Assembly (NCBI GenBank): GCA_027337125.1
Contig: GCA_027337125.1_3057.1
DNA: 64,000 nucleotides
Source of the DNA: a phage
Strand: one strand, 5' to 3'
Below are positions 49,788-61,840 of the stretch, piece after piece. Position 1 is the stretch's first letter. Each line of letters starts with the position of its first letter. The translations under genes were made by a program, and so were the position numbers. The notes under the pieces were generated by a model. It saw nothing but the letters and a program-made list of their open reading frames with translations, did no database searches and had not been told where the DNA came from.

Positions 49788-50420
49788 ATGAATATAGTAT
49801 ATTGGTTTACATTTGAAGACCGTGTCAAAAATAAGACTCCGCCATACTACTATATCGGTAGTAAATTAAATTGCTCATTTGAGAACGGAATAATATATGA
49901 CTCTTCCGGAAAGGAATACTGGAGTTCGTGTAAACAAAAAAGATTTTTGAATGCGGTAATGCTTCAAAAACCGAGCGTTAAAATAATTCAAATTGATGAT
50001 GATTTGGATGTTATTGAAGCAGAGCGAAAATACCAACTTGAAGTAAATGCCAGAGATAATCCAGACTATTTTAATCTGGTATATGCTGGCGGCGGATTTG
50101 GTGTGAGTGGTGAAACTCACCCAGCTAAAGACCCGGAAGTTAGAGAGCATATGAGATTGGCTAATTATATGAACCGTGACGATTTCAGACCTTGGAAAAC
50201 ATCACGAGCTAATATAGAGTCTTGGAAATTATCTCATATTGCTTACGAGAATTATGTGTTATTATTATCCTCTAATCTGTACGGTAAAACTCCTGGATGG
50301 CGAAGAGTTAAAGGTAATATAAATATAACTGATACAACTGCTAAATCGATGGTAAAGTATTTCAACTCAGGTTGGATACCTCTCGAAGACCCAGAGTATT
50401 GCAAATTATGCCAGCTATGA
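49788..50420 (+). CDS. Seg-like GIY-YIG homing endonuclease (210 aa) inserted between 59 and 32
   Basis: N-terminal IVY...YYIGSK (GIY-YIG-like) with downstream R, E, N residues at expected spacing; occupies the T4 segG (32.1) position. Confidence 0.6.
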   Translation: MNIVYWFTFEDRVKNKTPPYYYIGSKLNCSFENGIIYDSSGKEYWSSCKQKRFLNAVMLQKPSVKIIQIDDDLDVIEAERKYQLEVNARDNPDYFNLVYAGGGFGVSGETHPAKDPEVREHMRLANYMNRDDFRPWKTSRANIESWKLSHIAYENYVLLLSSNLYGKTPGWRRVKGNINITDTTAKSMVKYFNSGWIPLEDPEYCKLCQL

Positions 50421-50474
50421 GGTAAAGTGTCATAGCACCAACTGTTAATTAAATTAAGTTAAAAAGGAAATAAA
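50411..50474 (+). promoter_or_regulatory. Gene 32 translational operator: leader hairpin/pseudoknot (GCUAUGA...UCAUAGC) plus unstructured A/U-rich tract before the start
   Basis: Sequence and layout match the known T4 gene 32 autoregulatory leader. Confidence 0.65.
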
Positions 50475-51380
50475 ATGTTTAAACGTAAATCTACTGCTGA
50501 ACTTGCTGCGCAAATGGCTAAACTGAATGGCAATAAAGGTTTTTCTTCTGAAGATAAAGGCGAGTGGAAACTGAAACTCGATAATGCGGGTAACGGTCAA
50601 GCAGTAATTCGTTTTCTTCCGTCTAAAAATGATGAACAAGCACCATTCGCAATTCTTGTAAATCACGGTTTCAAGAAAAATGGTAAATGGTATATTGAAA
50701 CATGTTCATCTACCCATGGTGATTACGATTCTTGCCCAGTATGTCAATACATCAGTAAAAATGATCTGTACAACACTGACAATAAAGAGTACAGTCTTGT
50801 TAAACGTAAAACTTCTTACTGGGCTAACATTCTTGTTGTAAAAGACCCAGCTGCTCCAGAAAACGAAGGTAAAGTATTTAAATATCGTTTCGGTAAGAAA
50901 ATCTGGGATAAAATCAACGCGATGATTGCGGTTGATGTTGAAATGGGCGAAACTCCGGTTGATGTAACTTGTCCGTGGGAAGGTGCTAACTTTGTACTGA
51001 AAGTTAAACAAGTTTCTGGTTTTAGTAACTACGACGAATCTAAATTCCTGAATCAATCTGCGATTCCAAACATTGATGATGAATCTTTCCAGAAAGAACT
51101 GTTCGAACAAATGGTTGACCTTTCTGAAATGACTTCTAAAGATAAATTCAAATCGTTTGAAGAACTGAGCACTAAATTCAGTCAAGTTATGGGAACTGCT
51201 GCTATGGGTGGTGCCGCAGCGACTGCCGCTAAGAAAGCTGATAAAGTTGCTGATGATTTGGATGCATTCAATGTTGATGACTTCAAAACAAAAACTGAAG
51301 ATGATTTTATGAGCTCAAGCTCTGGCAGTTCATCTAGTGCTGATGACACGGACCTGGATGACCTTTTGAATGACCTTTAA
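50475..51380 (+). CDS. 32: Single-stranded DNA-binding protein gp32
   Basis: 301 aa; matches T4 gp32 including zinc site and acidic C-terminus. Confidence 0.95.
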
Positions 51381-51402
51381 TAGATTATATTACTAATTAA
51401 TT

Positions 51403-51428
51403 GGGGACCCTAGAGGTCCCCTTTTTTA
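51403..51428 (+). terminator. Intrinsic terminator after gene 32 (GGGGACC-cuaga-GGUCCCC + U6)
   Basis: 7-bp G/C stem and T-tract. Confidence 0.8.
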
Positions 51429-51452
51429 TTTCAAAAATTTTTTCACAAAACG

Positions 51453-51482
51453 GTTTACAAGCATAAAGCTTTATGGTACTAT
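51453..51482 (+). promoter_or_regulatory. Early promoter cassette (GTTTAC 51453-51458, -10 TACTAT 51477-51482)
   Basis: Near-identical to cassettes at 2711, 30338, 34138. Confidence 0.65.
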
Positions 51483-51525
51483 ACAACTATCGGCAATACT
51501 GCTGATGATTAAAGAGGAAAATAAT

Positions 51526-51756
51526 ATGGCTAAAGTTGATATTGACATCGTTGATTTTGAATATATTGAAGAAATTATTCGTAATCGTTATCCTGAACTT
51601 AGTATCACAAGTATTCACGATGACCCTAATTATTGCAATTTTTCTATTGTCATTGAAGGTCCTCTTGAAGACCTCACCCGCTTTATGGCTAATGAATATT
51701 GTGATGGCATGGATGCCGAAGACGCAGAATTTTACATGGGACTGATTGAACAATAA
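51526..51756 (+). CDS. Hypothetical acidic protein (76 aa)
   Basis: ATG 51526 with AAGAGGA RBS. Confidence 0.55.
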
Positions 51757-59808: not shown

Positions 59809-59894
59809 AAAATGCGCCTTTAAACGGTAACGTTTATCGAAAACTCCTTTAATTGCTGGAAAGTCCTTTATAGGAAAACTAGCAGCCAAGGTTT

Positions 59895-59926
59895 TGCTTG
59901 CACCTTTAATTAGTATAATATAAATA
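59895..59926 (+). promoter_or_regulatory. Stacked candidate middle (MotA box TGCTTGCA + TATAAT) and late (TATAAATA 59919-59926) promoters inside nrdB intron upstream of I-TevIII
   Basis: Exact late octamer; TGCTT box 19 nt upstream of TATAAT. Confidence 0.5.
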
Positions 59927-59953
59927 TGATTATACTTTTAAGAGGATGCACAA

Positions 59954-60763
59954 TTGAACTATAGAAAAATTTGGATAGATGCCAACGGACCTATACCTAA
60001 AGATTCTGATGGAAGAACATACGAAATCCATCATAAAGACGGTAACCGTGAAAATAATGATTTAGATAATTTGATGTGTCTTTCTATACAGGAACATTAT
60101 GATATACATTTAGCTCAAAAAGACTACCAGGCTTGTCATGCTATAAAGCTCAGAATGAAATATTCTCCTGAAGAAATTTCTGAATTAGCTTCTAAAGCCG
60201 CAAAATCTAGAGAAATCCAGGTTTTTAATATCCCTGAAGTACGAGCTAAAAATATTGCCTCTATTAAATCTAAGATAGAAAATGGTACATTTCATCTTTT
60301 AGGTGGTGAAATACAACGTAAATCTAATTTAAATAGAGTTGCATTAGGTATACATAATTTTCAACAAGCTGAGCATGTTGCAAAAGTTAAAGAACGCAAT
60401 ATTGCAGCTATAAAAGAAGGTACTCATGTATTTTGCGGTGGTAAAATGCAGTCAGAAACTCAATCAAAACGGGTAAATGACGGTTCACATCATTTCTTAT
60501 CAGAAGACCATAAGAAAAGAACATCAGCAAAAACATTAGAAATGGTTAAGAACGGGACTCATCCTGCACAAAAAGAAATCACATGTGATTTCTGTGGTCA
60601 TATTGGTAAAGGTCCTGGATTTTATCTAAAACATAATGACAGATGCAAATTAAATCCAAATAGAATTCAATTGAATTGCCCGTATTGTGAAAAGAAAGAT
60701 TTATCACCATCGACGTATAAAAGATGGCACGGCGACAATTGCAAAGCAAGGTTCAACGACTAG
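59954..60763 (+). CDS. I-TevIII: HNH homing endonuclease I-TevIII (full-length, 269 aa; TTG start inferred)
   Basis: HNH motif EIHHKDGNRENNDLDNL...H; C-terminal zinc finger CDFCGH...CPYCEK; AGAGGA RBS 7 nt upstream of TTG. Confidence 0.8.
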   Translation: MNYRKIWIDANGPIPKDSDGRTYEIHHKDGNRENNDLDNLMCLSIQEHYDIHLAQKDYQACHAIKLRMKYSPEEISELASKAAKSREIQVFNIPEVRAKNIASIKSKIENGTFHLLGGEIQRKSNLNRVALGIHNFQQAEHVAKVKERNIAAIKEGTHVFCGGKMQSETQSKRVNDGSHHFLSEDHKKRTSAKTLEMVKNGTHPAQKEITCDFCGHIGKGPGFYLKHNDRCKLNPNRIQLNCPYCEKKDLSPSTYKRWHGDNCKARFND

Positions 60764-60899
60764 TCTTCGGACGTAGGGTCAAGCGACTCGAAATGGGGAG
60801 AATCCCTCCGGGATTGTGATATAGTCTGGTCTGCATGGTAACATGCAGCAGTTCATAAGAGAACGGGTTGAGAATTAGCGAGCTCAATCGAACATAACG

Positions 60900-61402
60900 G
60901 TACCTTTAACTTCCATAAGAACATGGAAATCATGGAAGGTAATGCCAAGATTATGAAGTTCATTGCACGTGATGAGCAGCTTCACCTTAAAGGCACTCAA
61001 TATATTATTCGTCAGCTTCAATCCGGTACTGATGGTGATGAATGGGTTAAAATTGCTCAAGAGTGTGAACAAGAAGCAGTTGATATTTTCATGGAAGTTA
61101 ACCGTCAAGAAAAAGACTGGGCAGTTCATTTATTTAAAGATGGCGATGTTCCTGGATTAAATACAAATAGCATGTGGAGCTTTATTGATTACTTAACTGT
61201 ATCTCGTATGAAACAGTGTGGTCTTCCATGCCCAATTACCGATGCTCCGGTTAAACACCCATATCCTTGGATTCGTGAATATCTTAATTCTGATAATGTT
61301 CAATCCGCGCCACAAGAAGTAGAACTGTCATCTTACCTTGTTGCACAGATTGATAATGATGTTGATGATAAAGTTATGATGAGTTTTAAAAAATACTTTT
61401 AA
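60900..61402 (+). CDS. nrdB: Ribonucleotide reductase small subunit NrdB, exon 2
   Basis: (C)TFNFHKNMEIMEGNAKIMKFIARDEQLHL... continues R2; joined product about 392 aa. Confidence 0.9.
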
Positions 61403-61429
61403 GGAGTGGGCCGCAAGGCCCATTTTATT

Positions 61430-61840
61430 ATGAAAGAAATTGCAACAGAATATTCATTTATTAAATATACTGAGCTAGAATTAGACGACAACGGAAGTAT
61501 AAAACAATTATCTATTCCAAACAAGTATAACGTAATTTATGCTATTGCTATAAATGATGAGCTTGTTTATATTGGAAAAACTAAAAATTTACGCAAAAGA
61601 ATAAACTATTATAGAACTGCTATTAACCGTAAAGACAAAACGTCTGATTCTACTAAATCTGCATTAATTCATGCTGCGCTAAAGGAAGGAAGCAAAGTTG
61701 AATTTTACGCCCGCCAATGTTTTAATCTTTCTATGACAAATGAGTTAGGTACAATGACAATCGCAACGATTGACCTAGAGGAGCCACTATTCATTAAACT
61801 GTTTAACCCGCCTTGGAATATTCAACATAAGAAAAAATGA
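61430..61840 (+). CDS. denA: Endonuclease II DenA (GIY-YIG family), 136 aa from ATG 61430
   Basis: [29 protein letters not shown] motif; size and position after nrdB as T4 denA. Confidence 0.8.

Follow-up and report, generated by a model that had tools for sequence, protein, structure and literature searches.

RB3-type homing-endonuclease genes in the nucleotide-metabolism region of a T4-like phage and a probable homing footprint around its td intron

The nuclease genes clustered around the nucleotide-metabolism genes of the phage DNA analysed here (a stretch of 64,000 nucleotides of contig GCA_027337125.1_3057.1, hereafter the window) make up the same complement as in phage RB3. The region is very probably the conserved 59-32-frd-td-nrdA-nrdB-denA block of a T4-like phage (Tequatrovirus), in which four selfish homing-endonuclease genes occupy canonical slots and are accompanied by an ordinary host-DNA-degrading endonuclease II, DenA (Table 1). 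The type is already known: it is the well-known T-even homing-endonuclease cluster in its RB3 form. All five nuclease genes listed in the initial annotation are real and lie where it placed them, as confirmed by domain or PHROG matches and by protein identities to T4/RB3 of 98-100% for SegG, I-TevI, I-TevIII, and DenA, and of 99.6% to RB3 for MobE. The four homing-endonuclease genes are packed into 11 kb of the window (P ~0.018 under uniform placement). Most of the nuclease genes had been described as joined to their neighbours by overlapping stop and start codons, which is true of mobE only, tied by TAATG both to nrdA and to nrdB. The 59/segG junction reads TGA-T-ATG, with a 1-nt gap and no overlap, the intron ORFs (I-TevI and I-TevIII) overlap no neighbour, and the denA ATG (61430) follows a GC hairpin, 27 nt beyond the nrdB stop.

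Table 1. Positions in the window of the nuclease genes, their host genes, and the related empty or unsplit sites.
Feature	Position	Strand	Basis or remark
glucosyltransferase/uvsX junction, empty, no segA	5418..5494	.	uvsX starts 5495; 77-bp gap
56/soc junction, empty, no segF	13038..13119	.	gene 56 ends 13037, soc starts 13120; 82-bp gap
gene 39, contiguous, 1818 nt; no gene 60 split, mobA or 60.1	24050..25867	+	tblastn and ORF
segG, free-standing homing endonuclease	49788..50420	+	between gene 59 (49133-49786) and gene 32 (50475-51380)
td exon 1, thymidylate synthase codons 1-183	53704..54252	+	Pfam Thymidylat_synt positions 1-175
putative minimal donor-type co-conversion tract, td nt 501-546	54204..54249	+	consecutive donor-type sites
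td group I intron, 1016 nt	54253..55268	+	clean absence in relatives, restored TD, Rfam match
I-TevI, GIY-YIG intron homing endonuclease, 245 aa	54384..55121	+	Pfam GIY-YIG, I-TevI_ZnF, I-TevI_DNA-bd
td exon 2, minor JoYop-type allele	55269..55580	+	99.0% identical to JoYop
mobE, RB3 type, 243 aa, free-standing HNH homing endonuclease	58402..59133	+	nrdA/nrdB slot
terminator-like hairpin in 5' end of mobE	58434..58455	+	9 pairs, 6 G-C, loop of 4
nrdB exon 1	59133..59808	+	Pfam Ribonuc_red_sm
T6/T4-like patch in 5' nrdB, ~nrdB nt 31-140	59163..59272	+	per 30-nt bin: T6 28-29/30, RB3 21-23/30
nrdB group I intron, 1091 nt	59809..60899	+	absent from T2, T6, JoYop, Shfl2
I-TevIII, full length, 269 aa, HNH	59954..60763	+	Pfam HNH_3 48.6 bits
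nrdB exon 2	60900..61402	+	98.8% identical to RB3
denA, endonuclease II, GIY-YIG, 136 aa	61430..61840	+	Pfam GIY-YIG 27.1 bits, cut-off 22.6

SegG is the orthologue of T4 SegG in the 32/59 slot of T4, with 99.0% identity to the T4 protein (208/210 residues), 99.5% identity to RB3 SegG over 210 aa, and a match to PHROG 7504 'homing endonuclease' (1e-133). No Pfam GIY-YIG domain is found in it at E<=0.01, and its assignment to the GIY-YIG family follows the literature (PMC2988022 Table 1); a YIG motif is present at residues 22-24, and PHROG 314, matched by I-TevI at 2e-50, is matched weakly by SegG (2e-7). T2, T6, JoYop, and Shfl2 lack the entire ORF (window 49788-50410), the corresponding stretch being ~35 nt long in these phages.

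Removal of the td insert gives a 286-aa thymidylate synthase, and T2, JoYop, and Shfl2 lack the intron at exactly this nucleotide. In nrdB, joining exon 1 to position 60900 gives a 392-aa NrdB, colinear with the intronless nrdB of T2; this insert, too, is missing at the identical nucleotide in T2, JoYop, and Shfl2. In both genes the 5' exon ends in T (U) and the intron in G, in agreement with group I boundaries. The Rfam model Intron_gpI (RF00028) aligns to 54990-55220 in the td intron (42.5 bits, E 2e-8) and to 60570-60848 in the nrdB intron (36.4 bits, E 1.5e-6); both fall short of the gathering score of 50, at which neither intron is reported, and both appear when an E-value threshold is used. 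The ORF inserts split the intron cores. Outside the ORF the td intron is 100% identical to those of RB3/T6/pSe, and from the 97-100% identity of the non-ORF parts of both introns to the RB3/T4 introns we infer that both are spliced.

The I-TevI ORF carries an N-terminal GIY-YIG domain, a zinc-finger linker, and a C-terminal DNA-binding domain (Pfam PF01541, PF22635, and PF20987, all over the cut-off), and 244 of its 245 residues match T4, T6, RB3, and pSe. I-TevIII is of the RB3 form: its ORF is uninterrupted and free of the deletion found in T4, its HNH_3 domain lies at residues 4-48, it matches PHROG 12324 (8e-192), and 264/269 residues are the same as in RB3. The 97-aa I-TevIII remnant of T4 matches only its C-terminus.

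The HNH part of MobE (residues 1-60) is nearly identical to that of T4/T6 MobE. Residues 61-243 show no similarity to T4 MobE, to nrdB.1, or to the 213-aa ORF of T6 that the T4 mobE and nrdB.1 annotations jointly match, and are 99.5% identical to RB3 'MobE' (AY262130). Because of this unrelated C-terminal part, sequence comparison assigns the gene to the RB3-type allele and not to the T4 type. In Pfam, NUMOD1 is detected at 26 bits and HNH at 19.3 bits, the latter under its cut-off of 21.4; PHROG 655 is matched at 1e-57. The features shared with T4-type mobE are the N-terminal HNH domain, the nrdA/nrdB slot, the start overlapping the nrdA stop, and the 5' hairpin, which agrees with the internal terminator described for all mobE-bearing phages (PMC2790892). 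The gene is absent from T2 and Shfl2.

The agreement with RB3 (NC_025419 / KM606994) extends to all eight sites compared by annotation and tblastn, at which the pattern of presence and absence is identical. Its five nuclease genes occupy the same slots at 98-100% protein identity, including a 243-aa MobE and a 269-aa I-TevIII of the active type; gene 39 is contiguous, and segF (56/soc), segA (beta-alpha-glucosyltransferase/uvsX), and mobA are lacking. The window is nevertheless not a copy of RB3: overall DNA identity is only ~95%, td exon 2 is 69% identical, nrdB nt 31-140 differs, an additional 338 bp separate frd.1 from the 80-aa ORF in RB3, and RB3 lacks dam together with a 186-aa nuclease-fold ORF. 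The latter, a PD-(D/E)xK ORF, adjoins dam in the window and was missed in the initial annotation.

T4 (NC_000866) resembles the window in SegG, I-TevI, and DenA (99-99.6% identical, at the same positions), in the 1016-nt length of the td intron, and in the placement of mobE between nrdA and nrdB, where the TAATG overlap and the internal hairpin are likewise found. It differs in that I-TevIII is a deletion remnant, MobE is common only in the first ~60 residues, segA, segF, mobA, and the 39/60 split are additional, and the 80-aa and 115-aa ORFs flanking frd are missing. The set had been said to differ from that of T4. The statement is correct for I-TevIII (intact against deleted), the mobE type, segA, segF, and mobA/60, but not for the Seg-like gene at 59/32 and mobE at nrdA/nrdB, both of which T4 has (PMC2988022 Table 1).

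The reported absences are real. T4 gp39 residues 1-473 align at 98% to the gene 39 ORF of the window, which runs on beyond them and equals in length that of RB3, T2, and T6; ORF 4569-5417 aligns to the beta-glucosyl-HMC-alpha-glucosyltransferase region of RB3. In tblastn searches of the window, T4 SegA, SegF, MobA, and 60.1 gave no match, save for a cross-match of MobA to the HNH domain of mobE, and T4 beta-gt gave none. When T4, T2, T6, and RB3 were compared site by site, segA, segF, and the mobA/60 split proved to be missing from T2, T6, and RB3 alike; their absence is therefore the usual state and T4 the exception, and these genes are T4 peculiarities. In T2 the sites of all four mobile genes are empty, and T6 has only I-TevI and a T4-type MobE.

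It had been proposed that the combination of endonucleases has been seen in no described phage and records separate gains and losses. The window indeed matches no record exactly (only 94-97% identity, with the best match changing from part to part), T4 differs at the sites named above, and the td intron is joined to this td allele in no record searched. The same set at the same positions is nonetheless found in RB3, which refutes the claim that the combination is distinctive, and the RB3 siblings RB5/6/7/9/10 agree with it in gene content at all eight sites; T4 does possess segG and mobE (PMC2988022), at least 88 phage records contain a full-length I-TevIII, and the C-terminal domain of RB3-type MobE occurs in ~55 records at >=95% identity. 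We consider a combination of this kind, with a separate history of the set, to be improbable. The general idea of an independent gain is supported at one site, where the td intron sits, with a short donor-type tract, in an allele unlike that of every intron-bearing phage compared.

DenA had been counted among the mobile nucleases. It is 99-100% identical in T2, T4, T6, RB3, pSe, JoYop, and Shfl2, being present in each of these seven relatives, and shows no homing-endonuclease pattern of presence and absence; it is a core gene and not a mobile one. Its conservation could also be taken to mean that the nucleases are kept because they are useful to the phage, through competitor exclusion or regulation of neighbouring genes, and that the cluster works as one functional module within the nucleotide-metabolism region and is not purely selfish. 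Published work on exclusion of a competitor's markers by homing endonucleases (PMC2988022), on autorepression by I-TevI (PMC2988022), and on the mobE terminator, which may tune nrdB transcript levels, points in the same direction. For each of SegG, both introns, and mobE, however, there are viable close relatives (among T2, T6, JoYop, and Shfl2) that lack it and have a clean empty site, as expected of mobile genes that can be dispensed with. I-TevIII has a premature stop in pSe_SNUABM_01 and survives in T4 as a deletion remnant. A functional module is thus doubtful.

From their near-identity to characterised genes we infer activity, splicing, and mobility for these elements. By analogy with established T4 work, in a mixed infection each enzyme would cut or nick the endonuclease-free allele of a relative: SegG in gene 32, I-TevI 23/25 nt upstream of the td insertion site, I-TevIII in nrdB, and MobE, by nicking, in the 5' part of nrdB; for the RB3-type MobE, a target equal to that of T4 MobE is an assumption. 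Through recombination-dependent repair the cut genome would then acquire the endonuclease gene along with adjacent DNA (homing and marker exclusion), and td and nrdB would remain functional since the introns would be spliced out.

The td gene appears to preserve the outcome of one such event. The intron is 100% identical to that of RB3/T6, yet it is housed in a minor td allele that is 97-99% identical to the intronless td of JoYop (OR769032). Exon 1 is 97.1% identical to JoYop and 87-92% to T4/RB3/T6/T2/pSe; for exon 2, which is closest to JoYop, identity is 94-95.5% to ~25 other records and only 69-75% to RB3/T4/T6/T2/pSe. At 82 td sites RB3, T6, and pSe agree and JoYop differs. At 10 consecutive sites of this kind (td nt 501-546) the base in the window is that of the donor, with JoYop-type bases on either side (nt 492 and 561), and the chance of a donor-type run of this length is P<=2e-9. 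JoYop itself has recipient-type bases across td nt 498-552. At its maximum the donor-type tract comprises 54196-54252 and 55269-55279, so that its length is between 46 and 68 nt. The I-TevI cut sites, located 23/25 nt upstream of the point of insertion (PMC2988022), fall inside the tract. Its bias towards exon 1 agrees with the one described in published work, where it results from I-TevI remaining bound on the exon-2 side (PMC2988022). The junction between the intron and a JoYop-type td exon was found in no collection searched.

Judged from these sequences, the donor-type tract across the I-TevI cut site is most probably a natural homing footprint, a scar of the intron's own insertion. A T4/T6/RB3-like donor would have passed the intron to a divergent, JoYop-like td allele, and the co-conversion tract would have been left almost wholly in exon 1. 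Experiments on td intron homing, in which exon sequence is co-converted (Bell-Pedersen 1989; Mueller 1996, summarised in PMC2988022), likewise give a donor tract over the cut and insertion sites, mainly in exon 1; the event described here differs in being a natural one, deduced from genome comparison, and in its short tract. The same arrangement could have arisen from an intron-bearing T4/RB3-like td if both exons were replaced by ordinary recombination with a JoYop-like phage, with crossovers falling near the intron by chance. T-even genomes are highly mosaic, the best matches change along the window, and the entire orf80-frd-orf115-td-nrdA.2-nrdA.1-nrdA stretch is JoYop-like (96-99.7%). Two independent crossovers would be required, however, no more than ~57 nt upstream and ~11 nt downstream of the intron, whereas one double-strand-break repair event accounts for the same pattern, and the donor tract that was kept covers exactly the I-TevI cut and insertion sites with the published exon-1 bias. 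Replacement of both exons by chance crossovers is therefore unlikely, and we favour homing of the intron into the JoYop-like allele.

JoYop has the same mobE type (94-95% nucleotide identity) and lacks segG, the td intron, and the nrdB intron. Just downstream of mobE, the 5' part of nrdB carries the T6/T4-like patch listed in Table 1, while the flanking mobE and the remainder of nrdB are RB3-like. The patch includes the nicking region of T4 MobE, mapped to nrdB nt 114-131 (PMC2790892). On a possible but less probable reading, the RB3-type MobE, with its shared HNH head and unrelated NUMOD1-containing tail, may be a functionally distinct homing endonuclease with a target of its own and a rival of the T4/T6 type for the nrdA/nrdB slot, the patch being a scar of that contest. 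If this were true, the patch and the td footprint would both be traces of recent micro-exchanges driven by endonucleases, at two places within 6 kb of the window.

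The window belongs to a T4-like phage (Tequatrovirus), and about a thousand records were matched by megablast with the 12 kb nuclease cluster and the rest of the window. The closest record reaches ~95-97% identity at most, and the best match changes among the three parts searched. The + strand is the reverse of the T4 map orientation, with the gene order 43, uvsX, 41, 61, dam, 56, soc, dda, 39, rIIA, rIIB, denB, 52, tail-fibre genes 34-38, rnh, 33, 59, 32, frd, td, nrdA, nrdB, denA, rnlA. The five nuclease genes of the initial annotation are all present, as judged from domain and identity evidence, at the coordinates collected in the following table.

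Coordinates of the features discussed (positions in the window; strand where reported)
Feature	Coordinates	Description
Glucosyltransferase ORF	4569-5417 (+)	upstream of uvsX; T2/T6/RB3-type beta-glucosyl-HMC-alpha-glucosyltransferase
186-aa ORF	11119-11679 (+)	between gene 61 and dam; stop overlaps dam start
56/soc spacer	13038-13119	82 bp, same as RB3
Tail-fibre tip	37640-41638 (-)	distal part of genes 38/37
261-aa ORF	37659-38444	at gene 38 position
Alignable piece of tip	37963-38352	~390 nt, 78% identity to RB3
segG	49788-50420	208/210 residues as T4 SegG; 209/210 as RB3 SegG
80-aa ORF	52490-52732 (+)	before frd; PHROG 3183
115-aa ORF	53343-53690 (+)	between frd and td; 11-nt overlap with frd; PHROG 1928
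Donor-type td tract	54204-54249	td nt 501-546
td intron	54253-55268	1016 nt
I-TevI	54384-55121	GIY-YIG, zinc-finger and DNA-binding domains; 244/245 residues as T4
mobE	58402-59133	243 aa, nrdA/nrdB slot; HNH head and NUMOD1 motif
T6/T4-like nrdB patch	59163-59272	nrdB nt 31-140
nrdB intron	59809-60899	1091 nt
I-TevIII	59954-60763	unbroken 269-aa HNH protein; 264/269 residues as RB3 enzyme
GC hairpin	61406-61440	between nrdB stop and denA ATG
denA	61430-61840	GIY-YIG domain

DenA is present in T4, T2, T6, RB3 and the window alike; its identity is 99-100% across every relative examined, and denA is a core gene and not a mobile one. The four mobile genes fall within 11 kb of the 64-kb window (P about 0.018 under random placement). 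Most of the nuclease genes had been described as joined to their neighbours by overlapping stop and start codons, which holds for mobE with both nrdA and nrdB (TAATG each) but not for the others: segG starts one base after gene 59, the intron ORFs I-TevI and I-TevIII overlap no neighbour, and denA has no such overlap either. The GC hairpin (GGGCCGCAAGGCCC) would lie within the coding region if DenA started at the upstream GTG used in the T4 RefSeq record (144 aa); the 136-aa form is annotated in RB3, T2 and T6.

The intron boundaries were set by alignment with intronless T2. In both introns a T ends the upstream exon and a G ends the intron, and removal in silico gives a 286-aa TD and a 392-aa NrdB. 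Neither intron was detected by Rfam at gathering thresholds; in E-value mode the group I cores were matched at 42.5 (td) and 36.4 bits (nrdB), below the cut-off of 50.

The absences noted in the initial annotation are real. T4 SegA, SegF, MobA and 60.1 are unmatched in the window, apart from a cross-match of MobA to the HNH domain of mobE, and sensitive tblastn found in the window neither degenerate remnants of segA, segF, mobA and 60.1 nor further copies of its own endonucleases. Gene 39 is a single 1818-nt ORF, and about 80 bp lie between 56 and soc and likewise between the glucosyltransferase and uvsX. The 56/soc site is found in three states, a short spacer in the window and RB3, two small ORFs in T2 and T6, and segF in T4.

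Endonuclease and intron content of the window and four T-even phages
Phage	segG	td intron/I-TevI	mobE slot	nrdB intron/I-TevIII	segA, segF, mobA/60 split
T4 (NC_000866)	present	present	annotated mobE plus nrdB.1	97-aa deletion remnant of I-TevIII	present
T2	clean empty site	clean empty site	clean empty site	clean empty site	absent
T6	absent	present	213-aa ORF (equals T4 mobE plus nrdB.1)	no intron	absent
RB3 (NC_025419)	present	present	same 243-aa mobE (242/243)	269-aa I-TevIII	absent, gene 39 contiguous
Window	present	present	243-aa RB3-type mobE	269-aa I-TevIII	absent, gene 39 contiguous

In the comparison with T4, T2, T6 and RB3, RB3 carries the identical endonuclease set at identical positions, so the proposal of a distinctive combination is refuted, and the set has little weight as a discovery. 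The contrast drawn with T4 is sound for segA, segF and the mobA/60 split; it fails for segG and mobE, as T4 has segG at 32/59 and mobE at nrdB/nrdA (Edgell-Gibb-Belfort review, Table 1; PMC2988022). For segA, segF and mobA T4 is the outlier, and lacking them is not unusual. Textbook knowledge already covers this cluster, its individual genes and how they vary across the T-even phages.

Phage pSe_SNUABM_01 is colinear with the whole 12 kb (megablast), but was rejected as an intact equivalent of the cluster: the reading frame of its I-TevIII (about 11673-12482 of its comparison locus, L002) is broken by a stop codon within the HNH region (…LSIQ*HYDIH), and the gene is annotated from a start downstream of that stop and is probably defunct. 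Full-length I-TevIII is found in at least 88 phage records, and the RB3-type MobE tail, deposited as 'MobE' in AY262130, in about 55 records at ≥95% identity; neither is rare.

Residues 1-60 of the window MobE are common to T4/T6 MobE and the other 183 are unrelated, which makes it a head-and-tail recombinant; such recombinants have been described among Mob proteins in general (PMC2790892). Two published traits of mobE are conserved, namely the TAATG overlap with nrdA and a hairpin that begins 33 nt from the gene start. Hef of phage U5 was considered for this slot and rejected, because the MobE HNH head is retained, whereas the review sets Hef, a 'unique endonuclease', apart from MobE, an HNH enzyme (PMC2988022). 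The T4 RefSeq mobE (141 aa) and nrdB.1 (83 aa), at 8717-9417 of the T4 comparison locus (L004), together match one 213-aa T6 ORF (L008, 13585-14226), and look like a split version, frameshifted or mis-called, of a single MobE. At the 5' end of nrdB, nt 31-140 are T6/T4-like (28-29/30 per bin), with RB3-like flanks formed by mobE upstream and the remaining nrdB downstream. The T4 MobE nicking region, nrdB nt 114-131 (PMC2790892), lies inside this patch; speculatively, a T4/T6-type MobE could have left it behind through conversion.

By per-feature nucleotide identity, conservation is much higher in the mobile parts than in the genes that host them. Outside its ORF, the td intron matches RB3, T6 and pSe_SNUABM_01 at 100%, and I-TevI matches RB3, T4 and T6 at 99.7% (pSe_SNUABM_01 at 99.5%), whereas td exon 2 reaches only 69-75% identity to RB3, T4, T6, T2 and pSe_SNUABM_01. 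This exon is a minor allele of about 26 records, closest (99%) to phage JoYop (OR769032), whose td has no intron. The backbone here is JoYop-like (96-99.7%) over the 80-aa ORF, frd, the 115-aa ORF, td and nrdA. Both small ORFs are absent from T4 and present in T2, T6, RB3 and JoYop.

At 82 informative td sites the intron-bearing phages agree with one another and differ from JoYop. The window has the donor base, that of the intron-bearing phages, at ten of these sites in a row (td nt 501-546; P ≤ 2e-9 by chance), bounded by JoYop-type bases at td nt 492 and 561. Both the insertion site and the I-TevI cut sites, which lie 23/25 nt upstream of it, fall within this tract, which covers 49 nt or more of exon 1 but no more than 11 nt of exon 2. 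The same exon-1 asymmetry has been seen in experiments and ascribed to I-TevI staying bound on the exon-2 side (PMC2988022). The pattern is read as the probable trace of natural homing, with the intron entering a divergent allele. Two ordinary crossovers, one within some 57 nt of the intron and the other within some 11 nt, could also produce the pattern; this is less parsimonious and we regard it as improbable. The splice-site flanks are likewise of the donor type (TTGGGT on the 5' side of the intron and CTACC on the 3' side, against CTCGGT and CTTCC in JoYop), suggesting that the pairings needed for td splicing came in with the intron. The junction between the intron and a JoYop-type exon 2 was not found among 50,697 phage records, where the best match (85% coverage, 91% identity) joins the intron to a T4-type exon, and had no exact matches in IMG/VR viral contigs or JGI metagenome contigs.

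Outside the cluster, the T4 beta-glucosyltransferase has no match in the window, and because the ORF upstream of uvsX corresponds to the T2/T6/RB3-type enzyme, the phage DNA is expected to be glucosylated in the T2/T6 manner. The tail-fibre tip has no DNA alignment to T4 or RB3 except for the single piece listed, and appears to be a host-range cassette unlike both.

The 186-aa ORF beside dam, variably present and not listed in the initial annotation, brings the nuclease-like genes of the window to six. It is carried by T2 and about 155 phage records (Tequatrovirus), mostly annotated as hypothetical, while T6 and RB3 lack it and T4 has an 11% fragment only. A D72...E85-x-K87 motif is invariant, and the same stretch is weakly matched by DpnII in Pfam (E 0.0025) and by type II restriction enzymes in PADLOC (E 5e-5). 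The AlphaFold model (pLDDT 77.5) matches PD-(D/E)xK nucleases only, with modest TM-scores (0.3-0.46), and a PDB sequence search found nothing; NCBIfam added nothing for this ORF, SegG or the 115-aa ORF. It may be a Dam-linked or a mobile nuclease.

By analogy with established T4 work, and given 98-100% identity to the characterised proteins (the RB3-type MobE tail excepted), each homing endonuclease would cut or nick the allele of a co-infecting relative that lacks the endonuclease gene, and recombination-dependent repair of the cut genome would then copy in that gene together with its flanks. The introns would splice out, leaving td and nrdB functional. The comparison corrects the impression that absence of segA, segF or mobA is odd. 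The td intron, identical to that of distant relatives and set in a ~30%-divergent exon-2 allele, offers a modest natural worked example of homing, in which the exon bases adjoining both splice sites would have been imported together with the intron. The short, exon-1-biased donor tract illustrates in a wild genome the predictions of homing experiments, a neat but expected result.
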